Assembly (NCBI GenBank): GCA_000004985.1
Contig: GG738899.1
Reading direction: 5' to 3' (one strand)
Length of the DNA: 64,000 nucleotides
DNA from: Naegleria gruberi
Lineage: Eukaryota
Part shown: positions 4,886 to 26,496 of the stretch, piece by piece
Position numbering within the stretch: the stretch's first letter is position 1
Layout: every line of letters starts with the position of its first letter
The notes under the pieces: model-generated
What the model was told of the DNA's origin: nothing
The model's input: only the letters and a program-made list of their open reading frames with translations
The model's database searches: none
Program-made: the position numbers and the translations under genes

Positions 4886-5366
4886 TTTGATCAACAAAAC
4901 CAAAAAATATCAAAATTATCGTAAACGAAAAAGATTTTAAATTCCAAAAATTCATTTAAATTAAACTTTAAAGTTTGTTAAAATTGGTTTTTACAATGTC
5001 ACCGTAGTGTGAACACCAAACTGTAAAGTGTTGAACTCGTCAATTAGAAATATTTGAACTTTACAATAAAAAATTCTTGCCTGAATTAATTGACAATTGT
5101 AGCCATGCACTTCCACTCCTGTTTTAAAGAACCATTACAATGAACATTTTTCCGTACAAAGATAAAATGTGCTAAGTGATAATTCCTTGTTAATAACCAG
5201 CTTAGATGTTTGGGTTTCCAAATTCTGTTTCTGGCCATAACAAGCTGTCATTCTACTTTATTGATCACTGACAGCTACCAAATGATTGGATTGAACAAAA
5301 ATAAACACTTCAAAAACCTCTTCATTGTTCTTTTTAAAAATAATAAATTTAAAAAAAACCAAACAA

Positions 5367-6461
5367 ATGAAATCACTATTGCTACTTTTCACACTCTTGG
5401 CAACTGCAATTCTCATTGCTGGCCACAAAGTCACAGAAAAGACAATCATCAGCTCTGAAAAGATAGGTTACGGTGTGTTGAAGGGTCCAGAATCTATTGT
5501 GTGGGATCCAGTCCATGCTGATGTATTATATACTGGTATTAATGATGGTAGTATCATGAGAGTAAATGTCACGTCAGGTGTCAGTACTGTTTACGCTTAT
5601 TCTGTCCCAGCTTTGAATGCCACACAAAGAGCTGTCTGTGGTACAAGCGTGTTATATGAAGGTACCTGTGGTAGAGTTTTGGGAATGGTATTTGATAAGA
5701 ATAACAATTTAATTGTCGCTGATGCTTACAAGGGATTGTTGAGAATTTCCAGAGCTAATCCAAGTCAAGTTGAAGTTTTGGTCAATTCATACAATGGAGT
5801 CCCATTCAAGATGACAAACTCAGTTGTCTTGTTGAAGGATGGTAAGACTGTCTATTTCACTGATTCTTCCCTTCTCTATTCAAGACTTTACTTTGTGTCC
5901 ATCGTTGTGGCCAACAATCCAGATGGAAGATTATTCAAATTCGATTTGGAAACCAAGCAATTGCAAGTTGTCATTTCTGATTTGAAATTTGCCAATGGTA
6001 TTGCTGTTTCCAAAGATGAATCCTTCCTCGTTATCAATGAATGTTCATCTGGCTCATTAAGAAGATTCTACTTAAAGGGAAGAAAGGCCGGAACTAATGA
6101 TGTTTTCGTTCAAGATATTGGTGGATATGCTGATAATATCAAGACTGATGATGATGGCAATTTCCTAGTTGGTTTATTCTCAAATACCACTCAAGAAGTT
6201 ACTGCCATTCATGATTCTGCCAAGTTGAAGAATATTTTCCTGACCATTGTGCCAGCAACTACCACTTTGGGAATGATTGTTCCACAAGGATTGGTTAAGA
6301 AGGTCAATCAAAAGGGAAAGATTACAACTGTTTATTCTGATAAGACTGCTACTTTTGCTTTGCAAGTTTCTGAAGCTGATGTCAGAGGTGGATATTTGTA
6401 TTTGTGTTCAGTTTTGAACCCTTGGTTGACCAGAGTTAACTTGTCAACTGGTTTGCAATAA
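5367..6461 (+). CDS. Strictosidine-synthase-like / APMAP-like six-bladed beta-propeller protein with an N-terminal signal anchor
   Basis: Single 365-aa exon. N-terminal MKSLLLLFTLLATAILIAG, then GPESIVWDPVHADVLYTGINDGSIMRV and FTDSS.. motifs typical of the strictosidine synthase/SMP-30 superfamily. The ATG at 5367 is the first in-frame ATG; the track ORF begins upstream at 5325 with a non-ATG codon. Confidence 0.7.
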   Translation: MKSLLLLFTLLATAILIAGHKVTEKTIISSEKIGYGVLKGPESIVWDPVHADVLYTGINDGSIMRVNVTSGVSTVYAYSVPALNATQRAVCGTSVLYEGTCGRVLGMVFDKNNNLIVADAYKGLLRISRANPSQVEVLVNSYNGVPFKMTNSVVLLKDGKTVYFTDSSLLYSRLYFVSIVVANNPDGRLFKFDLETKQLQVVISDLKFANGIAVSKDESFLVINECSSGSLRRFYLKGRKAGTNDVFVQDIGGYADNIKTDDDGNFLVGLFSNTTQEVTAIHDSAKLKNIFLTIVPATTTLGMIVPQGLVKKVNQKGKITTVYSDKTATFALQVSEADVRGGYLYLCSVLNPWLTRVNLSTGLQ

Positions 6462-9331: not shown

Positions 9332-10018
9332 ATGCATTCGTCCTTCCTCAATAAAGATAAAGATCATATACAATCAAACAACTACAGCAGGGTAAAGATA
9401 ATATATCCTCAACAACACTGTTTTAACATGTCCATAAGTAAATAATTTTACATGACTAAACAAGTCTTCTACATCCAAACTAGAACATCAAACCAATTGG
9501 CCATCAAATCATCATTCCACTACATCCTCCTTTCCATTTCATGATTGTATTCATTTCTACTCTGGCCCGAAATATCACACTACGTTACATTCCAGCATAC
9601 TTTCACCCATCATGTACTTGCTTATCACAAGAGATCTTTCAAACAACAACATTTAATCATTCATATTATAAGCAGCAAATAATTACCTTCCTTTCCCCTC
9701 ATCTCATCCATCACCAAATGCTTGCTGTGCTGCTTGACGAGGACACAATTTTTTCATCATTAAAAAAAATCACTAAAATTTTAAGCGGGAACCTTCAAAG
9801 CCTTTGTTCTTCCTCCTTTCCTTCACTGCACACGGCAAGAAACAACAACAACATCATCAGATTATATTGTTGTAGTAATAGTATTTGAAAAGGATACCTT
9901 AGTTATAACTAATTGTTATATTTCCGCTAACGAACGATTATTAAAATTATATATTTCTAGAAGAAGTATTATCATCATTGTCATCATCATTGTACTATAT
10001 TATTATTATTATTAAAAT

Positions 10019-11490
10019 ATGAGAGTATTTAAACAACGTATTAAAGTTAAACTTGGAAAGGCTGAATCTACTCAAGACCCAGAAGGATACAATGACTTAC
10101 GTGATCAAGTGAAAAAGACTGAAAATTATGCTAAAGGAGCTTTAAAGATTGTGAGAGGATATTGTCAAAAATCCGAAGCAATTACAAAGGTTCAAAATGA
10201 AGTTGGTCAATACTTGGTAGAAAGTGGTATGCAAACAAATGATGAAGGTAAGTTAATTTCTAGAGGATTCGGCTCAGTTAATAATTTTATGATGTTTGAT
10301 TGATGAAAATGACGAATTGACACAGTTGGTGAATCTTTGATGAAAATTGGAGAAGGATTAAAATCACTTGCTACTATTCACCATGCCATGTTGGTTAACA
10401 TTGTTGAAAAGTTTATTCAACCAGCTACAGAATTCAAGAAGGAAGTCAAGGATTCTGAAGTTTCTCATAAAAAGTATGACAAGAAGCGTTTGGAATTTGA
10501 TGCCCAAGTAGATCTTGTCAATTCATTAAAGCAAAAGGGTGAAAAGGTAGATCCACAAAAAGTTCAAACAGAAGAAGAAAAACAAACACAATTTGACAAT
10601 GAAAAGGATGAAGCTTTTGAAGAAACATTGGAAGAAACTTGTGATGTTTTGGTAAAGAGACAAACCAAGCACTTGGCACAACTCAATGAATTACTTTTGA
10701 GTTTCCACCACTTTTTTGCTGAAGGTTATACTCTTACACACGATTTGAAGGAACCATTGGAAAAATTAATGGAAAAATCCAACAAGAAAGCTTCCACATT
10801 CAAACAACAAACAGTGGAAAGTGTTTTGGGTGGAGGAGGATCTATCAGATCAACACCATCACAATCTTCATTCACACCTTCAACTAAATCAAACACTGAA
10901 ACATCAACTTCAACAGTCACAACAACCTCAACAGCCAAGTCATCAACTAATACTACTTCAACTAGTGCTGTTGGTGGTATGGGAGCTGCCTTCTCAGCTG
11001 CCAAAAAGACAGAAAGTGCTGCAGCAACAGTTTTGTGTAAATGTAAGGCCATGTATACTTATGATGCTCAGGATAGCACAGAAATTTCATTCACTGAAGG
11101 TGAAACTATTTTGGTTTATGAAAAGGAAGAAGGTGGATGGTGGAGAGGTGCTAGAGAAGCTACTCCAACCAAGTCTGGTATCTTCCCATCTAATTTCGTT
11201 GTAGATTCTAGTGCTTCTTCAGGTAGTGGAAAAACAACAACTGCATTGTATGATGTAAGTATTATTTGTTTTATTGGAATTGATTTATTAATTATTTTAT
11301 CATTTAAAATTATTTTGTTAAATTATTTAAATAGTATGAAGCTCAAGAATCAAACGAATTAACTTTCAAAGCAGGAGAAGTTATTGAAGTCATTGAGGAA
11401 GCAGATGGAGGGTGGTTTATGGGCAAGAATTTGTCAACAAACAAGGTTGGTCTTTTCCCTTCAAACTTTACAGAACTAGGAGCACAATAA
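10019..11490 (+). CDS. BAR-domain protein with two C-terminal SH3 domains (amphiphysin/Rvs167/endophilin-like). join(10019..10247,10326..11254,11334..11490)
   Basis: Intron 1 is 10248..10325 (GTAAGT...CACAG) and intron 2 is 11255..11333 (GTAAGT...AAATAG). The exon 2-3 junction restores a complete SH3 domain (ALYD|YEAQESNELTFKAGEVIEVIEEADGGWFMGKN...GLFPSNF). The first SH3 domain is CKAMYTYDAQDSTEISFTEGETILVYEKEEGGWWRG. The N-terminal 250 aa are helical and BAR-like. Confidence 0.7.
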
Positions 11491-18162: not shown

Positions 18163-20274
18163 ATGATCGTTGGTGGCGCCTTAAAAGGTCTCGGAATGAT
18201 TTTTCCCGCCAATTTGGAGCATATCGTAAATGAGGAGAATGAAGAGGAATTTATTTTGATTCGGAAGGGATTTGATAATAGAAAACAAGTTGCTTTAATT
18301 TCTGGTTAGTAACATATTCATTTGTTGGATTTGGATATATAAATTGGTGATACTATTTAATTTTATTATTTGATGATTTGATGAATTTAATTTGATTTTA
18401 ATATTATTGATGGTGATGAACAAATATGAAAAGGAGGAGGATCTGGACATTCACCATCACATGAAGGATTTGTTGCAAAAGGAATGCTCACAGCTGCTGT
18501 TTTGGGAGCTGTTTTTACTTCTCCGAGTGTTTTGCAAATCTTCAAGGCAATCACTGCTGTTACAAGCAGGAGACGAGTTGATGAAGAAGGAAAGGGATGC
18601 TTGTTGATTGTGAAGAATTATACAGGAGATATATTGAATTTTAGATTGGCTAGAGAAATGGCCATTCAAGATGGATATAATGTGGAGATGATTATTGTGG
18701 GAGATGGTATGTTGTTTGAATATATATGTGAAGATTGTAAAGTTTTTGAATGATTAGATGTTACTCATCAGAGAGGAGTTGCTGGAACTGTTTTTATTCA
18801 TAAATTGTGTGGAGCTATGGCTGAGAGAGGTGATTCATTGAGTGAGATTTTTGAGTTTATGAAATCAAAATTAAAAATCACATCGGAACAAGTATTGAAT
18901 AATGGAAATGAATCATTTATTAGGAGTATTGGAATTGGATTGAATAGTATTTCAATGCCAGGTAATTCGGAACCACTCTATGAATTGAGTGACAGCGATC
19001 CTGTCTATGAGCTCGGCTTGGGAATTCATGGAGAGAAGGGCGTTTGCAGACTTACATTTTCTCCAACTAATCCAGTCACTGAAATTTCCAACACAATGAT
19101 TGAACATTTATTACCAAAGGAATTCAGTGCCGAGAATCTCAAATTTGCTCTCATGATTAATAATTTAGGATCTACCACCTTGTTGGAAATGTACAATATT
19201 GCAAGGGTGGTAATTACCTTATTGGAAAATCAAAACATTTCTATTGAGAGAGTGTATGTTGGAACATTCATGACTGCTCTGAATATGCATGGATTCTCTC
19301 TCAGCTTGCTTAATTTAGCTCAAAACTCTGAACAATTATTAGAACTCTTGGACACTCCAACAGAGTCAATGTTTTGGCCAACTAGTTTGAATCTCTCCAA
19401 AAAATCAAACAATTCTTCGAGAACTAGTCACTCAACTGGAGGTATTAAACTGTCCCCTCAAATAGGAATAACAGCCACAACAAAATCCATCATATCTACT
19501 GAGGAAAATTCACAAGTAGAAAAATTCCTCTCACTCACAGGGGTCGTTTGTGATTTTATCTTGACAAGAATTAAAGAATATAATTCTTTGGACAGTGAAG
19601 TTGGAGATGGGGATTGCGGGAGTGCCATTGAAAGGTATGTACAAAATATCACATTATGTAATTATATAATTTATAACTATTTTATATATTTGGAATATTT
19701 TAGAGCTTGTGAATCAATTCAACAACACATCCTCAAAAAACAAGATTTGAAAATGACACTTGCCGAATTGGTTTATCAAATTGGAATTTGTGTTCAAAAT
19801 AGTGGAGGTAGTTCAGGAGCTATTATTTCCATGTTCTTTTTAAGATATTCCAAATCATTGAAAACGAATTCATTCGATCACAAGAAGGCATTCATTGAGG
19901 GAGTGCACGGAATGATGGAATTGGGTGATTCAAAGAAGGGAGACAGAACAATGCTCGATACTCTCATTCCAGTCAGTGAATATTTACAGGAACAAGAAGA
20001 ATCTATCGATGTGGAAACCATTGTTAAAGTTGCAAATGAAGGAATGGATAGTACAAAATCAATGCTTGCCAAAAGGGGTAGATCTCGTTATCTTGGAGAC
20101 AGAGTTTTAGGATTCTTAGATCCTGGTGCACTTTGCATGTTTGATATTGTCAAAATTTGGTCATTGTGGATGTTAGATAAATCACGGGTGGCTAACTCTA
20201 GCGATTTTTTTCGTGAAGTCTCCGACCCACGAGTTTTTTTTGCCACAGTAAATATTACAAGTTGTACTATTTGA
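18163..20274 (+). CDS. Dihydroxyacetone kinase / triokinase (DhaK + DhaL domains). join(18163..18304,18434..18741,18772..19634,19704..20274). The 3' end runs into the transposon, whose TIR supplies a 30-aa C-terminal extension
   Basis: Exon 1 is [15 protein letters not shown]...[10 protein letters not shown] 129-nt intron (GTTAGT...AAAAG) leads to [34 protein letters not shown] is the DhaK signature. A putative 30-nt intron (18742..18771, GTTTTT...ATCAG) removes an in-frame TGA and gives the same length between GDG and RGVAGT as in human TKFC. A 69-nt intron (GTATGT...TTTTAG) lies inside the DhaL domain, which carries GDGDCG. The reading frame reaches its stop only at 20272..20274, inside the element. 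Confidence 0.75.
20175..20182. repeat. Target-site duplication, left copy (AGATAAAT)
   Basis: Identical 8-mer immediately outside both TIR ends. Confidence 0.75.
20183..20241. repeat. Left terminal inverted repeat of the transposon
   Basis: CACGGGTGGCTAACTctagcgattttttttcgtgaagtctccgaCCCACGAGTTTTTttt. The capitalised blocks have reverse-complement partners at the right end. Confidence 0.7.
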
Positions 20275-20554
20275 ACCAATATACAATCAATAAATGTTTT
20301 GAAAATGTAAATAATCATATTTAAAGACTAGACTCTATCGTTTACCTGTTGACGAAAAATCTTGGGGTTTTATCAACCCCTAATAAAGAATTTGATGTGT
20401 GCAACAATCATAAAAATAAATATAACCATAAAAGGTATTGAAAAATGACTAACCGAGCTCAAAATCAAATATAACGAGTTTTATTCGAAATACTAATACA
20501 AAAATTGGTAAGTACCTTTCTTCTTACTTCAATAACGAAATGTAAAATTTTGAA

Positions 20555-23500
20555 TTAAATATCTTGAGAGTTGATGATTTGAGAAGGTTGCGGTTCAATT
20601 TCAATTTCCTCAAATAAGCAATTATTGCACCATCTTTCAAATTTAACACATGAATCACAAATAAGAGATCCACAATCATGACATCTACGTACTGACTGAG
20701 TTCTGAAGTGACATGATTCACAGACAAATTGAGGGAAATGAGTGGAACAATTTTTACAAACTCCTTGAAATTCACATAAATTACAAATCTCCACTCCACA
20801 TTGATTACACTCATCAAGTGATTTTGTGTATCCTAAACAAATGTGGCATGGATAAATTGGATAGAAAAGTTCTGTAAAACAATCTATGCAATATAATTGA
20901 TGCCAACATGAATCACAAAACAACCTGAAACAATCACCACACTTATTAATTCCTCTCTCATGTCTACAATAGTTGCAACCTTGTTGTTCACAAATATCTG
21001 GATCACATTTACAAGTATTTGGAAAGCAATATCGTTCATTCTTCTTACAGGAGCATTTAAGGTTTGAGCAACTGGTTGTACAACGGCATCCTGTTACCTT
21101 AGTAAGCTTGGATTCTGAATTTGATTTCTTTCTTTTTTTCTCAATATTTGAGGTTTTAGAGAATTCTTGAATATTCGAAATGGCTGTGTTAACATCATCA
21201 AAAAATTTGTTTAAAATATTAAATAATCCAATTACATCAAAGAATGCACAATGACAATCCGCAACATTTCCCACTTGGAAATGTTCAATTAACATTTCTT
21301 CTTTGAATGCAGTTCTTCCACTACTCTCTTTTTTTGGTAATTTGTGATGTAGATCTTTGTGGCTTTTCATTAATTTCAAGGAATCTACGAAAACTATATT
21401 TTCAAACTTTGATTCTCTTTTCGGATAAAACTCTTTCTTAAATACTTTGAAATCAAGTATCTCACCATTGTGCGCAATTAAGAAAGTTTTCCCTTTAGTA
21501 TTACTAATAAAATCAATAATAAAATCAAGCTCCTTTTCAATGATTGGTTTGTCTCTTACATAATTCAAATTGATTCCAGTAATCTTTGTTGAATGATATG
21601 AAATTGATTTTGTTGGATTTACTAATCCATAAATTGATTCACCTGTTGCCATATTTAAAAAGCAATATTCTGTTATTTTTGGTGGATCATCATTTGTCCA
21701 AAATCCTGTTGTTTCAAAATCAAACAGAATATATTTGTCATCTCCAAAATCATGTTGAAATGGAAGACCCTTATTGTGTGTGTACAAATCATCATTGAAT
21801 AAAATTCTGGAAGCTCGTGGGATTGGTTCTGAAGGTCTAATTTTTTGATCTACTATTGATTTATCAACAGTATTTGTAATAAGTGTTAATAAATTATCAC
21901 TGTCCAATAGGTTGGAAGAATCTGACTGTTTGATTGATTTCAATAAAGCTTCAATCATTGACTGCTTTCCCTCTGAAAATGAATAATTATGAACGTTCAT
22001 TACATGTTTCAAAAATGATTTCAATCTCACAAAAGGTTGATTACATTCTTTACAAAGAATGTAAATATTATTCATGATGTTTTTTGAGTCAATGTTCGGT
22101 GGATTTTTACACATGAATTCTCGTATGAGCATAGTGTTTCTTTGAGGTTCAAATCCTTCTACAGCATCCAATATATAATCGAACATTTCAGTAAAACTAT
22201 TTTCTTTCTCTAATATTTGATCTTCTTCTTCCTCTGTAAGTTTTTTCTTATTCTTCTTCTTATACTTCTTTCTAGTTAATTCCTCATACTCCAATTCCAA
22301 ATCTATTTTTCCATAACAATTCGAATAACTCTCATTTCTCAAAACAAATGGTCCGTCACTTAGTTTTGCTTTTAACACTAACCAAACAGATCTATAACAG
22401 GAACAATAATCCATAAATGTTGGATATCTAATTTTGGATCTAACAATGCTGAAACAATGTTCTACCATTAATGTAGATAAGCTACAAGTACATAGCTCAA
22501 TTGTTGGAAATCTTGTCTTAAGCTCCTTTAAGGATTTTAATGTAATTATAATATGATCAAATAATTCATTATTTAAAGAAATATCGTTTGATTTTTGCCA
22601 TGGATTAATAAATTGAAAAACAGAGTCTAACAGAATCTCTTTTGCTTCCCAACAATAATCATTTTTGAAAATATAATAAATATCCTGCATTAGTTTTAAA
22701 TATTTAGAGACTGTTTGACAAGTAGTATTTTTTGATTTGGCCAAACCATCAATTAAATTAGTTTCTAATAATGCAAATACGGGATCCATAGCCATTTTGT
22801 CAGTAGGATAAATCACAGAATTAGGTAGCCAATCAGTTAAATTTGATTCAGATTTGGCAATCAATAACGTCTCAATTGAAAATGAAATGCCATCTATAGT
22901 CATGGTTTCATTTAGTAATCTATTTCGTAATCGTTTTAGTAGATGAGAGTAATCAAAGAAGTGAACAGTATTGGGAAATATTTTTTGTGTTTGGAAAAAT
23001 GTTAAATTTCCAGTCAATCCATCGCTACTGAAACCTACAACTTGGAAAGAATAATTATTTAACTGAATTCTTTCAAACTGTTCCTTAATCTTTTTTACTT
23101 GATCTTCCAAAAAATCTGCATGACTTGATTTTGTACAACCTGCAAACATTAAAGGGAAAGAAACACTTCCATCAATTGTAGTAGCAAAGAATTGGCAAAT
23201 GTGAGAAGCAATTTGGGAAGGTACAATTTCTTCTTTAGATTTGTATAGCTGATCAAAATCTTTTTCATTATAATCTGCAAATCCTATAACTTTTCCAGAA
23301 TCTTTAAGAACACATAACCCTCCTCTTATTTCTATTTCATCATATGAAATTATTATATTATTCGTAACTTTCTTTTTCTGTATAGATTTCAATAAAGATT
23401 GCAAATCTAAATCAGAGGTTTGCCCTGTAGATAATTTGGGAAGATAAGATTTCACTGTTGCTAGAGATGGAAGTAATAAATTCACTTCATCAAGGGCTGT

Positions 23501-24226
23501 TTGAGAATTCAAAGCTGAGCCATTTCCTTTCAATATTTTCCATATTTTTGATCCACCAAAATATCTTAAAATTAGACACCAATGAATAATAGATTCCTTA
23601 TACTGATATCCTCTTGACTTATTATAATTAGTGATATTTTCCAAAGTATTTTCCATTAATTGGTAGAAAAATTGTTGTTCATGCAGTTTTTCATCTTCAA
23701 TAGCAGCAATCACCAATTTTACAAGTTTGTGATGATGAATTTTGGATAGTTTTTCCTCTAATGAATCCAATTTTTCTTCCCGTCTTGTTAACATAGATTT
23801 TAATTGAGATACTTTCTTTCTTAATTTCTCTATTTGATCTTTTTGTTTGATTAATTTTTCGTCAGAGTTGTTTGATTTAGTGGTTGTCATATGTCGCAAT
23901 TTTTCATATAATTGATAACAATCTGTGCAAACTCCATTCCGATTTAAATTAATATTTCCACATTTCAATGATTTGAAAATGAAATTTCCATTATCATTAA
24001 ATGATACAATTCCTACTTCATTGTTTCGTTTGTCACAAACTTTTCCATCATAATTTAATAAATTCCATACTTTTTCCACAGCAACTCCTTTACATGTAGT
24101 ATTATTATTTTTACAGTTAGCACATGATCGTGTATCAGCATGTTTACATTTCCCCATGCCTTCTTTAATTTCCGAAAATCCTTTTTCTGAATTATATTCA
24201 ACTTTGATCGTTTCATCATTTGCCAA
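20555..24226 (-). CDS. Transposon-encoded 1223-aa polyprotein. N-terminal Cys-cluster region, coiled coil, central region of about 600 aa (putative transposase core, unclassified), DEDDh 3'-5' exonuclease domain, C-terminal array of at least 8 B-box/zinc-ribbon-like CxxC...CxxC modules
   Basis: Intronless 3.7-kb ORF in a genome whose host genes have an intron every few hundred bp. Exo I motif ILFDFETTGF, Exo II LIAHNGEILDFKVF, Exo III CHCAFFDVIGLFNIL (H-x-A-x-x-D): the complete DEDDh triad set. Coiled coil around DQIEKLRKKVSQLKSMLTRREEKLDSLEEKLSKI. The C-terminus carries repeated pairs of the type CQQGCNYCRHERGINKCGDC, CDSCWHQLYCIDC, CHICLGYTKSLDECNQCGVEIC, CEFQGVCKNCSTHFPQFVCESCHFR, CHDCGSLICDSCVKFERWCNNC. 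Confidence 0.75.
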   Translation of the reverse strand: MANDETIKVEYNSEKGFSEIKEGMGKCKHADTRSCANCKNNNTTCKGVAVEKVWNLLNYDGKVCDKRNNEVGIVSFNDNGNFIFKSLKCGNINLNRNGVCTDCYQLYEKLRHMTTTKSNNSDEKLIKQKDQIEKLRKKVSQLKSMLTRREEKLDSLEEKLSKIHHHKLVKLVIAAIEDEKLHEQQFFYQLMENTLENITNYNKSRGYQYKESIIHWCLILRYFGGSKIWKILKGNGSALNSQTALDEVNLLLPSLATVKSYLPKLSTGQTSDLDLQSLLKSIQKKKVTNNIIISYDEIEIRGGLCVLKDSGKVIGFADYNEKDFDQLYKSKEEIVPSQIASHICQFFATTIDGSVSFPLMFAGCTKSSHADFLEDQVKKIKEQFERIQLNNYSFQVVGFSSDGLTGNLTFFQTQKIFPNTVHFFDYSHLLKRLRNRLLNETMTIDGISFSIETLLIAKSESNLTDWLPNSVIYPTDKMAMDPVFALLETNLIDGLAKSKNTTCQTVSKYLKLMQDIYYIFKNDYCWEAKEILLDSVFQFINPWQKSNDISLNNELFDHIIITLKSLKELKTRFPTIELCTCSLSTLMVEHCFSIVRSKIRYPTFMDYCSCYRSVWLVLKAKLSDGPFVLRNESYSNCYGKIDLELEYEELTRKKYKKKNKKKLTEEEEDQILEKENSFTEMFDYILDAVEGFEPQRNTMLIREFMCKNPPNIDSKNIMNNIYILCKECNQPFVRLKSFLKHVMNVHNYSFSEGKQSMIEALLKSIKQSDSSNLLDSDNLLTLITNTVDKSIVDQKIRPSEPIPRASRILFNDDLYTHNKGLPFQHDFGDDKYILFDFETTGFWTNDDPPKITEYCFLNMATGESIYGLVNPTKSISYHSTKITGINLNYVRDKPIIEKELDFIIDFISNTKGKTFLIAHNGEILDFKVFKKEFYPKRESKFENIVFVDSLKLMKSHKDLHHKLPKKESSGRTAFKEEMLIEHFQVGNVADCHCAFFDVIGLFNILNKFFDDVNTAISNIQEFSKTSNIEKKRKKSNSESKLTKVTGCRCTTSCSNLKCSCKKNERYCFPNTCKCDPDICEQQGCNYCRHERGINKCGDCFRLFCDSCWHQLYCIDCFTELFYPIYPCHICLGYTKSLDECNQCGVEICNLCEFQGVCKNCSTHFPQFVCESCHFRTQSVRRCHDCGSLICDSCVKFERWCNNCLFEEIEIEPQPSQIINSQDI

Positions 24227-24356
24227 TTTTTCAACAAATCTTATTAGCTTCTGATAATGACTGTGACATAAACGTGACGTTTTTTTGTTGATTATTATAT
24301 TATCAGGAACATTTCTTGTGCCAGGCTGTTTACAACAACAACAACTTGTACGTTGT

Positions 24357-24408
24357 TTTCTTCATGACATTTTTTTGTTTTTTACTCAAAAAAATGTCAT
24401 GAAGACCC
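24357..24408. repeat. Second subterminal hairpin inside the transposon, just upstream of the ORF start
   Basis: cttcatgacattttttt gttttttactc aaaaaaatgtcatgaag (17-bp perfect inverted repeat). Confidence 0.6.
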
Positions 24409-24612
24409 AACACAGCCGGAGTTCTTTACCTAGGATGTTCAAGCCAAGTATTATTCTCAAGAAACTAGAACCAATTCATAAATTAAATATTTAATTAGAT
24501 TACTAGTAATAACCCGCCAGGTTCATACAATGAATAAACATTTAAATTTTTTTATTTTTTAACGGAATTAATTTGCTTTGATGAAAATATAATGGAGACT
24601 GTTGGTATGTTT

Positions 24613-24721
24613 CATGCAAAGTTCCACGTTGGTCAAATAATTATTAACATCAACAAGTAGTAGAAAACAGTAGGTTTTAAATTATTGGATTAGTTTTTTG
24701 ACCAACGTGGAACTTTACATG
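24613..24721. repeat. Subterminal hairpin inside the transposon (25-bp inverted repeat, one mismatch, about 60-nt loop)
   Basis: catgcaaagttccacgttggtcaaa ... tttgaccaacgtggaactttacatg. Confidence 0.65.
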
Positions 24722-24934
24722 AACGAGGGCACACTTTGAAGATTATTTTTCTGTGGCTTTATGTTATTCTTGTAATATATCTACAGACTCGGAAAGTTGC
24801 CAAGCAATAAATAAACAATACTAGTACTCATATGTTCAAAAGAATGACAAAGATCAACTTTAGATGTATTATAAATCGATTTAAAAGTTGAAAATTATTT
24901 ATTGATGAGCAACAACAAATTCCAATTTTATTTA

Positions 24935-24999
24935 AAAACTCGTGGGACACAAATGCTCGATTGCCTGAGCCAAAAATGACCCATAGTTAGCCACCCGTG
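24935..24999. repeat. Right terminal inverted repeat of the transposon
   Basis: AAAAACTCGTGGGacacaaatgctcgattgcctgagccaaaaatgacccatAGTTAGCCACCCGTG. Confidence 0.7.
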
Positions 25000-25007
25000 A
25001 GATAAAT
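25000..25007. repeat. Target-site duplication, right copy (AGATAAAT)
   Basis: Identical 8-mer immediately outside both TIR ends. Confidence 0.75.
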
Positions 25008-25194
25008 GATTGAGTTTTGTGAAACAGCTCATCAACGGAAATTGGTTGTATCCAATTAATTTTCAAAAAAGAAATCCATTATCTTACTGTAATCAATTAT
25101 TACAATCTAAAATTGATTACAAGTAGCATCTGATACCAACACCATTATAACCAAACTGTTGAAACTTGACGAAACTTTTTCATCTTTAAAAAAA

Positions 25195-26496
25195 ATGAAA
25201 AGATTCATTGGTGGTTTATTTCTCGTACTAATCTTTGCCACTGTTGCCATGTGTGCCAGCAGTGATGCATTCGACACCTTGAGTGATTACATCTCTCTCG
25301 CAGACTCCCTCAGAGGAGGTGGTTCTTCAGGAGGTGGAGGTGGCAGAGGAGGTGGATCCGGTGGTGGTGGCAGAGGAGGAGGTAGCTCTGGAAGTAGAGG
25401 AGGATCCAGCAGAGGAGGAAGTAGCTCTGGAAGATCAAGCACTGGAGGTAGATCAAGTACTGGTGGTAGATCAAGAAGTACTGGAGGAAGAGTTTCTGGA
25501 CCTGGTCGTTCACCAACTGGACCTTCTAGATCAATTGGTGCAACTAAAGGTGGAAGAGTTGGAGGAAGAGTTGGTGGAAGAGTTTCTGGACCAGGTAGAT
25601 CACCAACTGGACCTGCCAGATCAAGAGTTGGAAGAGTTTCTGGACCAGGACGTGCTCCAACATCTGTTTCCATTCAAAGAAATGCCATTCAAAGTAGAAT
25701 TAATGCTGCATTTGCTGGATTGAGTAAGGTTTCTACCAATCCTGCCTTGTCAGCTGCTCTTTCTAGATATGCCTCAATGAAAGCTGCTTCCTTGAAAGCT
25801 CCTTCAGTAACTAGTGCATTATTCTCCAAGACTCCATTGGGTCCAGTGAGTACTTTCTCAAAGGTCAACCCATCCTTGCCAACCAACAAGTTCACTAAAC
25901 CTGCAACTGTTGCCAATGTTCCTATTCCACAACCTCGTCCTGCCAATTTGGCCAAACCAGCAACTCAAACTGTTGCTGCTACTACCAGTGTCAAGAATCC
26001 AATTAATCCTGCTGGTGTCCAAAGAGTTGCTCGTAGTAAGCAACTTACTGGACCACAAGTAGCTCAAAAAGCAATTAAGGAATTAGCTGCTGCTGGTGTT
26101 ACTTTATCAGCCGATCCAAAACAAAGAATTGCTCAAATTGCTGACCAAATGGCCAACCCAGGATCATTACACAAATGTGCTGGTTATGTTGCTGCTGCTG
26201 TTGAAGCTGCTACAGGAGTCTCTCTCAGCAGACCTGCCTCAGCTGAAGCTAAGGATTACGGAACTACCATGGCCAAGGCTGGAATGAAGTCAATTCCAAA
26301 TAATAGCACTCCACAAATTGGTGATGTCAGAGTGATTGGACCATCTCCAACCAATGCCAAGTACAGTATTGGTCATATGGAGACCTATACTGGACCAAAG
26401 AGTGGATGGGTTTCTGATTATGCTCAAGGAGTATCTGCTGTTGATAATCCAAAGAGTGCTTATCATGGAGCTTCTGTTTCTACCTATCGTTTCTAA
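25195..26496 (+). CDS. Secreted protein with a Gly/Ser/Arg-rich repetitive region, an Ala/Pro/Ser-rich linker and a C-terminal CHAP-like (cysteine, histidine-dependent amidohydrolase/peptidase) domain
   Basis: Signal peptide MKRFIGGLFLVLIFATVAMCASS. Degenerate tandem peptide repeats (GGGSGGGGRGG..., RVSGPGRSPTGP x3). The C-terminal module HKCAGYVAAAVEAATG ... IGDVRVIGPS ... YSIGHMETYTG ... WVSDY has the Cys...G-D-V...G-H-hydrophobic spacing of CHAP/NlpC-P60 peptidoglycan hydrolases. No introns. Confidence 0.55.
   Translation: MKRFIGGLFLVLIFATVAMCASSDAFDTLSDYISLADSLRGGGSSGGGGGRGGGSGGGGRGGGSSGSRGGSSRGGSSSGRSSTGGRSSTGGRSRSTGGRVSGPGRSPTGPSRSIGATKGGRVGGRVGGRVSGPGRSPTGPARSRVGRVSGPGRAPTSVSIQRNAIQSRINAAFAGLSKVSTNPALSAALSRYASMKAASLKAPSVTSALFSKTPLGPVSTFSKVNPSLPTNKFTKPATVANVPIPQPRPANLAKPATQTVAATTSVKNPINPAGVQRVARSKQLTGPQVAQKAIKELAAAGVTLSADPKQRIAQIADQMANPGSLHKCAGYVAAAVEAATGVSLSRPASAEAKDYGTTMAKAGMKSIPNNSTPQIGDVRVIGPSPTNAKYSIGHMETYTGPKSGWVSDYAQGVSAVDNPKSAYHGASVSTYRF
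25310..25680. repeat. Coding low-complexity tandem repeat (GGN/AGA-rich, irregular 9-36-nt units)
   Basis: The repetitive ggtgg/aggagg/agagg runs generate the spurious overlapping ORFs seen in all frames of the ORF track at 25283..25723. Confidence 0.5.

Follow-up and report, generated by a model that had tools for sequence, protein, structure and literature searches.

An intact P-superfamily transposon of Naegleria gruberi encodes a transposase fused to a DEDDh-type 3'-5' exonuclease

The DNA considered here, a nuclear stretch of 64,000 nucleotides from contig GG738899.1 of Naegleria gruberi (GenBank assembly GCA_000004985.1) and referred to as the window, carries on its minus strand a long open reading frame (ORF) at 20555..24226. 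Very probably, this ORF represents the only gene of an intact cut-and-paste DNA transposon that belongs to the P superfamily and has probably moved in recent times; its transposase is fused, as is the rule in its clade, to a DEDDh-type 3'-5' exonuclease for which a function in the processing of 3' ends is proposed. An earlier reading of the letters alone (the original prediction) had assigned to it a protein of 1223 residues, and the 1223 codons without a stop are present; the TTG listed as their start is an artefact of a bacterial ORF caller, and the first ATG, at 24157, gives a product of 1200 amino acids (aa), 100% identical to P0001, a 'predicted protein' listed by NCBI for N. gruberi on a 331-kb scaffold. 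Upstream of this ATG, no additional coding exon can be seen. Residue numbers are those of the 1200-aa protein; adding 23 converts them to the numbering of the original prediction.

That the gene belongs to a transposon had been assumed at that stage; it is shown by the perfect 15-bp terminal inverted repeats (TIRs), CACGGGTGGCTAACT, and by the 8-bp target-site duplication (TSD), AGATAAAT, that enclose it (Table 1). The 14-nt core of the repeat, CACGGGTGGCTAAC, has two inverted matches in the window, at 20183 and 24999, as against 0.04 expected, and inward of the perfect repeat follow some 60 bp of imperfect subterminal similarity, including CCCACGAGTTTTT at about 50 nt from each end. The end motif of the element is CACGGGTGG, with termini of the type CA..TG. 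Duplications of 8 bp, where 7-8 bp are expected for the P superfamily, were found around both the N. gruberi element and a related element of N. lovaniensis, and the terminal inverted repeats likewise expected for the superfamily are present, their terminal 16 nt being common to both species. A scan with the 16-nt terminal motif gave just scattered single matches at chance level, and an exact-match scan of metagenomes did not find the empty insertion site.

The insertion point (junction 20175-20183) is the stop codon of a dihydroxyacetone kinase (DAK) gene with Dak1 and Dak2 domains, located at 18484-20274 on the plus strand. Without the element, the sequence at this site would be ..TTA GAT AAA TGA (..L D K stop); the DAK frame now enters the terminal repeat and acquires 30 additional residues before it reaches a stop at 20272-20274. 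The displacement of the stop codon makes the insertion look recent.

The centre of the protein, roughly 600 aa in which the original prediction had placed a transposase core, proved to be of the P-element type by profile, catalytic motifs and predicted fold. The match in Pfam is marginal (TNP-like_RNaseH_N, PF21787, 25.8 bits with a cutoff of 24.6), and a single-sequence phmmer search of the core against the PDB returned no transposase, a family profile being needed. The profile built from 39 sequences matched the structure of the Drosophila P transposase (PDB 6p5a) with E = 5.6e-14, and a core-only profile did so with E = 3.8e-9 and with the catalytic motifs aligned, namely SYDEIEI with AFDEMKV, SSDG with VSDLG, FDYSHLLKRLRN with FSDTPHLIKLVRN, and VEHCFS with VEHFFG, corresponding to D273, D379, D402xxH405 and E566. 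A canonical THAP9-like protein, which has all three Pfam TNP domains, was aligned by hhalign with a probability of 97.6%, collinearly from upstream of the first D to past the E. Residues D379, D402, H405 and E566 each reach a conservation of 90% or more among the 39 sequences, and D273 is invariant in a 10-sequence alignment of the core. The AlphaFold model of aa 150-700 has a predicted local distance difference test score (pLDDT) of 79.8 and a predicted template modelling score (pTM) of 0.78; with this model, a Foldseek search of the PDB gave significant matches to 6p5a and 6pe2 only, both of the P-element strand-transfer complex (E 2e-16, template modelling score (TM) 0.56/0.68, about 490 columns), the next match having E 0.04. 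Both the D..D..DxxH..E signature and the fold typical of the superfamily, a helix-turn-helix (HTH) and a split RNase H domain with a helical insertion, are thus found. Because profile, motif and fold evidence come together with the 8-bp duplication, the element is assigned to the P superfamily, by the characters given for it in PMC7776569 and PMC9587614.

The special feature of the protein is the domain that follows the core and a C2H2-type zinc finger, the latter with Pfam C2H2 matches below threshold and a C..C...H....H pattern that is kept in the family consensus. The three exonuclease motifs announced by the original prediction are all present, in the order DxE, ..D, Hx4D of the DEDDh subclass, and the catalytic pentad D813, E815, D902, H969 and D974 is aligned to the family and conserved. 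A DnaQ-like affiliation, which had also been anticipated, was borne out by Pfam RNase_T (PF00929, 31.5 bits on the isolated region, cutoff 24) and by the PolC/DnaQ models of NCBIfam (E down to 3.6e-15). The family profile matched the PolC exonuclease 2p1j with 1.4e-25, DnaQ epsilon with 5e-20, TREX2 with 1e-15 and TREX1 with 4e-14, and weakly, at 4e-7 to 1e-4, ERI1 and CRN-4. In the AlphaFold model of aa 700-1200 the pLDDT exceeds 90 across the exonuclease, and the top folds are those of TREX1, TREX2 and the TREX1 homologue Plex9.1 (probability 1.00, TM 0.62-0.72). Hence the nearest relatives are the PolC/DnaQ proofreaders in sequence and TREX1/TREX2 in fold, and the RNA-directed type (REX/ERI-1/PAN2) that had been expected is less likely than a DNA-directed one. 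TREX1/2, DnaQ and PolC are 3'-5' DNA exonucleases that act on single-stranded DNA or frayed 3' ends; since all closest relatives, by sequence and by modelled fold, are DNA exonucleases, DNA is the favoured substrate. Stand-alone relatives at 30-45% identity are found as well, among them the bacterial P0128, which has Pfam RNase_T only and lies in an ordinary bacterial neighbourhood.

Conservation in other copies speaks to the state of the active site. The three Naegleria proteins show no variation in the D-E-D-H-D pentad, and across the family, at 20-30% identity, nearly every copy linked to a transposase has kept it intact, the exceptions being mostly truncated predictions. No other domain is as similar between the N. 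gruberi and N. lovaniensis elements as the exonuclease (Table 1). These alignments place the active site under purifying selection and not in decay.

The element of N. lovaniensis (L001, 5087-9706) encodes a protein of 43% identity and lies in a different genomic context; its termini, CACGGGTGGCCAACTC and CACGGGTGGACAACTC, are nearly those of N. gruberi, and it is flanked by an 8-bp TSD of its own, GATTTTAT. An internally deleted relic copy with 76-83% nucleotide identity is present on a contig that encodes an N. gruberi protein, and several decayed copies occur in N. fowleri. It is by such features, here two independent 8-bp TSDs, conserved termini, deletion derivatives and copies in decay, that a mobile family is recognized. 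As to the individual sequences, two irregularities concern N. lovaniensis (L001, about 6094-6152 and 9368-9474): the element shows a frameshift near its 5' end, between the frame of the N-terminal Cys cluster and the main frame, and its public gene model, P0002, omits the whole Cys-rich tail, although the DNA encodes this tail in frame. The proteins of N. lovaniensis and N. fowleri are near-identical over most of their length.

A word-indexed search for homologues yielded hardly anything but Naegleria proteins, also when profiles served as queries, and it was an exhaustive HMMER search that revealed the family, with 424 relatives. Among homologues with a complete core and at least 250 residues after it, 27 of 31 have the exonuclease, and the order core-C2H2-exonuclease is constant in at least 24 distinct clusters at 50% identity. 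Pfam TNP-like_RNaseH_N and RNase_T occur together in transcripts of the Amoebozoa Protostelium nocturnum and Soliformovum irregulare, and also in many metagenome proteins on contigs of 4-9 kb. The transposase-exonuclease fusion is the ancestral architecture of a whole P-like clade in amoeboid protists and not a one-off capture.

Four long members with at least 250 residues after the core (P0014/P0154, P0096 and P0125) have no detectable exonuclease; one of them is labelled 'CDGSH-type Zn-finger protein' by its source, and these members may carry a different accessory domain. On the metagenome contig L004, a member of 1364 aa (P0052) lies between 18-bp perfect inverted repeats (4901-4918 / 10748-10765), around which no target-site duplication was found; further downstream lie genes of bacterial appearance (FolB, a DEAD/Helicase_C helicase that faintly matches the RecQ zinc-binding domain, and MMPL), and the contig may be an assembly chimera or else something unusual. 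Terminal repeats and duplications were looked for on L005 to L007 and not found. On L005, from a soil metagenome, a P-like gene with exonuclease (P0181; 4411-8655) adjoins a Ty3/gypsy-type chromovirus pol (RVT_1, RNase H, rve, Chromo), which suggests a transposon-rich region of a eukaryote.

At its two ends the protein is rich in cysteine. The N-terminal Cys cluster followed by a coiled coil, noticed in the original prediction, is present; the Cys residues of the cluster are kept in N. lovaniensis, and the coiled coil would, by the domain order of the P transposase, occupy the position of the leucine-zipper dimerization region of the P element (PMC7776569). For the C-terminal tail, at least eight CxxC...CxxC modules resembling B-boxes had been proposed. 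A Cys-rich tail does exist, its 185 aa containing 33 Cys; the count of modules was not upheld, and the tail is better described as one CXC-like cluster of nine Cys and three 8-Cys modules of the pattern C-x2-C-x8-9-C-x2-C-x4-C-x2-C-x5-6-C-x2-C, with 12 CxxC dyads in total. All 33 Cys, nine in the CXC-like cluster and 24 in the modules, are kept in N. lovaniensis, and 7-9 of the nine Cys of the cluster are kept in two metagenome relatives with partial tails. In Pfam the tail met ANCHR-like_BBOX (PF22586) alone, below threshold (E 0.08, 13.5 bits with a cutoff of 27), searches against PDB profiles gave noise-level matches only, and the AlphaFold model of the tail has a pLDDT below 50. Membership of the B-box, ZZ, CXC or tesmin family was accordingly rejected, there being no significant Pfam or PDB match and no reliable model; the Cys spacing resembles that of B-box1 or of a cross-brace, a likeness of pattern only. 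Since the other members of the clade end shortly past the exonuclease, the tail appears, on the sequences compared, to be specific to the Naegleria lineage.

With the P element of Drosophila, vertebrate THAP9 and Pdre, the Naegleria element shares 8-bp TSDs, short TIRs, the D, D, DxxH(LLK..RN), E signature, the HTH and split RNase H fold with a helical insertion, and an N-terminal, here putative, zinc module that is followed by a coiled coil. In contrast to these, it has another Cys cluster in place of THAP, the Pfam models for the GTP-binding and RNaseH_C parts do not match, and C2H2 finger, DEDDh exonuclease and 33-Cys tail are added after the core, all in a single intronless ORF and in a protist host. 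With KolobokD, judged by its description (PMC9587614), it has in common that both are eukaryotic DDE cut-and-paste transposons with a TREX/ERI1-like DEDDh exonuclease and a C/DxxH signature; the hosts of KolobokD are molluscs, arthropods and cnidarians, and the TTAA 4-bp duplications, the 5'-RR..YY-3' termini and the zinc finger between DxxH and E that mark Kolobok are absent here. The DEDDh pentad and fold are shared with TREX1/TREX2 and DnaQ/PolC (TM 0.62-0.72 to TREX, E 1e-25 to the PolC exonuclease); unlike TREX, to which it has about 19% identity, the Naegleria exonuclease is embedded in a transposase polyprotein.

Two other superfamilies were considered and rejected. For hAT, whose members also produce 8-bp duplications, neither profile nor fold searches returned a transposase such as Hermes. 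Kolobok, which came into question through the exonuclease-bearing KolobokD, was set aside on the basis of the two Naegleria elements, whose TSDs are 8 bp and non-TTAA and whose termini are CA..TG instead of RR..YY; no conserved Cys/His pattern of a KolobokD-type zinc finger is seen between DxxH and E in the 39-sequence consensus.

The original prediction knew of no such exonuclease in eukaryotic cut-and-paste transposases. This has to be corrected, as a DEDDh-type nuclease had been reported before in the P, piggyBac and Kolobok superfamilies (PMC3627910, PMC9587614), and KolobokD was described in 2022 (PMC9587614). The P-superfamily elements mentioned there show the same combination as the Naegleria element, which is most probably a member of this group; the earlier report consists of one sentence, without sequences, hosts, architecture or analysis. 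No paper on the P-linked exonuclease lineage, its distribution or the Naegleria elements was found in the literature, Repbase lying outside the scope of the search. The combination of P transposase and exonuclease has thus been mentioned in passing, and no member has been characterized.

Long 3' single-stranded extensions are the preferred substrates of TREX-type exonucleases. In Drosophila, the non-transferred strand is cleaved by the P transposase at a point 17 nt within the repeat, so that the element as well as the donor flanks end in 17-nt 3' single-stranded extensions, and the P element generates 8-bp duplications (PMC7776569). For the exonuclease of KolobokD, degradation of DNA intermediates from the 3' end was suggested by Kojima & Bao 2022 (PMC9587614). 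The following sequence of events can be envisaged for the Naegleria element: the N-terminal Cys cluster and the HTH would recognize the element ends, the coiled coil would dimerize the protein, as in the P transposase (PMC7776569), the DDE core would excise and integrate the element and so yield the 8-bp duplications, and the tethered exonuclease would act on the DNA 3' ends made in transposition. As 3' overhangs of the P type suit a TREX-like enzyme, trimming of the donor flank is proposed; removal of donor-flank overhangs or 3' flaps would aid repair of the donor or target site, and easier repair may be valuable in a gene-dense genome.

Several points weigh against this picture. A THAP domain, expected in the P superfamily, was not found with Pfam, even at E values up to 10 (aa 1-130); a different Cys cluster, itself without a Pfam match, is in its place. 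No clade member tested is matched by PF21788, the Pfam model of the GTP-binding insertion, or by PF21789, which represents the C-terminal portion of the RNase H domain, although PF21788 does match the canonical relative P0174; the insertion domain is predicted to be helical and is collinear with the GTP-binding region in the THAP9-like alignment. Given the lack of THAP and of PF21788 and PF21789 matches, the exonuclease-bearing clade is regarded as a divergent branch of the P superfamily. Furthermore, a single intact copy was seen in N. gruberi, and present activity is inferred from its intactness alone. For all members, the substrate of the exonuclease (DNA or RNA) and the step of transposition that it serves are predictions, and the staggered cut of 17 nt is established for Drosophila P only and may not apply here. 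Similar exonucleases are reported in piggyBac and Kolobok, which make no long 3' overhangs, so a role specific to P overhangs is not the sole possibility, and one independent of cleavage chemistry, for example the removal of element DNA or an action on small RNAs, is possible.

The latter idea can be taken further: the exonuclease may be an accessory against host defence or silencing, degrading small RNAs in the manner of ERI-1, or clearing cytosolic or extrachromosomal element DNA in the manner of TREX1. The DEDDh enzymes do include ERI-1 and RNase T, ERI1 and CRN-4 are weakly matched by the family profile, and TREX1 degrades DNA intermediates of retroelements (cited in PMC9587614); moreover, the recurrence of the domain type in P, piggyBac and Kolobok, in spite of their different cleavage chemistries (PMC3627910, PMC9587614), argues for a role that does not depend on them. 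Against this, the best sequence relatives (PolC, DnaQ) and the best folds (TREX1/2) are all DNA enzymes, 27 of the 31 members have exonuclease and transposase covalently joined in one protein, and the exonuclease is flanked by zinc modules of the DNA-binding type, which suggests action where the transposase acts. A purely defensive accessory is therefore considered improbable, and the processing of 3' ends is preferred.

Two further explanations deny either the fusion or the mobility, and both are given hardly any credence. One could suspect an error of annotation or of reading, or else a chimera in decay, with a transposase gene lying beside a captured host exonuclease gene and no single functional protein being made from the two, since the N. 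lovaniensis and N. fowleri gene models show truncation or a different division and one frameshift is located near the 5' end of the N. lovaniensis copy. However, one stop-free frame spans all domains in the window, the order core-C2H2-exonuclease is constant in at least 24 clusters, the assembled transcripts of Protostelium and Soliformovum included, the catalytic residues are kept at 20-30% identity, and no domain is conserved better than the exonuclease when the Naegleria elements are compared, so that this explanation is effectively refuted already. Alternatively, the gene could be an immobile host gene, domesticated from a P-like transposase much like human THAP9 and now employed in DNA repair or genome rearrangement. 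Domesticated genes derived from P do exist, THAP9 being an example (PMC7776569), and the copy number in N. gruberi is low, with one intact copy and relics; yet the gene is flanked by intact terminal inverted repeats and a perfect 8-bp TSD, the DAK stop codon has been displaced by what looks like a recent insertion, the N. lovaniensis element has its own TSD in another genome context, and multiple decayed copies are found in N. fowleri.

The coordinates of the element and of its parts are compiled in Table 1.

Table 1. Features of the transposon in the window, with protein identity between the N. gruberi and N. lovaniensis elements.
Feature	Position	Strand	Identity	Remarks
Complete autonomous DNA transposon, P superfamily	20183..24999	(-)		4,817 bp; one intronless gene; TIRs and 8-bp TSD
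TSD, left copy, AGATAAAT	20175..20182	.		identical to 25000-25007
TSD, right copy, AGATAAAT	25000..25007	.		
TIR, gene's 3' side, CACGGGTGGCTAACT	20183..20197	(+)		
TIR, gene's 5' side	24985..24999	(-)		reverse complement of CACGGGTGGCTAACT
Coding sequence from first ATG	20555..24157	(-)		1200 aa and stop; stop-free ORF of 1223 codons reaches 24226
N-terminal Cys cluster, aa 1-100	23858..24157	(-)	44%	putative zinc-dependent DNA-binding domain, where the P element has THAP
Coiled coil, aa 101-150	23708..23857	(-)		heptad-rich; weak coiled-coil-type Pfam matches only
HTH and split RNase H-like DDE core with alpha-helical insertion domain	22238..23707	(-)	50%	
Catalytic D273	23339-23341	(-)		
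Catalytic D379	23021-23023	(-)		
Catalytic D402-x-x-H405	22943-22954	(-)		
Catalytic E566	22460-22462	(-)		
C2H2-type zinc finger, CKECNQPFVRLKSFLKHVMNVH	21989..22054	(-)		between core and exonuclease
DEDDh 3'-5' exonuclease domain, aa 808-982	21212..21736	(-)	54%	
Exo I, LFDFETTGFW	21698-21727	(-)		
Exo II, IAHNGEILDFKVF	21440-21478	(-)		
Exo III, HCAFFDV	21233-21253	(-)		
CXC-like 9-Cys cluster	20978..21091	(-)	39%	C-x-C-x3-C-x4-C-x-C-x6-C-x4-C-x-C-x4-C
Three tandem 8-Cys modules	20603..20977	(-)	31%	four CxxC dyads each; putatively two zinc ions each

The 842 bp that separate the 5' terminal repeat from the ATG contain two inverted repeats able to form hairpins, one at 24359-24405 with perfect arms of 19 nt and a loop of 9 nt, the other at 24611-24723 with arms of 33 nt that are 91% complementary and a spacer of 47 nt; these may be promoter or regulatory elements or internal binding sites of the transposase. 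Beyond the element, a neighbouring ORF (25159-26496, plus strand) encodes an unrelated protein of 445 aa with a long Gly/Ser/Arg-rich, repetitive N-terminal half, which is underlain by tandem direct DNA repeats at 25311-25687.

According to the usual view, the breaks made by cut-and-paste transposases are left for the host to repair. In this context, the presence throughout the clade of a fused DnaQ/TREX-type exonuclease, catalytically intact by its sequence and the best-conserved domain of the protein, indicates that the nuclease is needed for the success of the element. One may go beyond the proposed processing of 3' ends and regard the clade as a distinct, ancient P-like branch whose transposition makes obligatory use of a tethered 3'-5' DNA exonuclease of the proofreading type, which might, for instance, trim the long 3' overhangs of P-type cleavage and so allow footprint-free repair of the donor site; this stronger version is advanced only tentatively and with considerable doubt. 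Should it be true, the clade would represent the first cut-and-paste system with its own break-processing nuclease, and the CXC-like cluster together with the triple 8-Cys tail of Naegleria would represent a new module for targeting DNA or chromatin. The Naegleria copy, which is intact and intronless, with defined ends, a perfect TSD and a culturable host, looks like a suitable starting point for the study of a transposon-borne 3'-5' exonuclease, and well-supported elements of the P superfamily are now extended to Heterolobosea and Amoebozoa.

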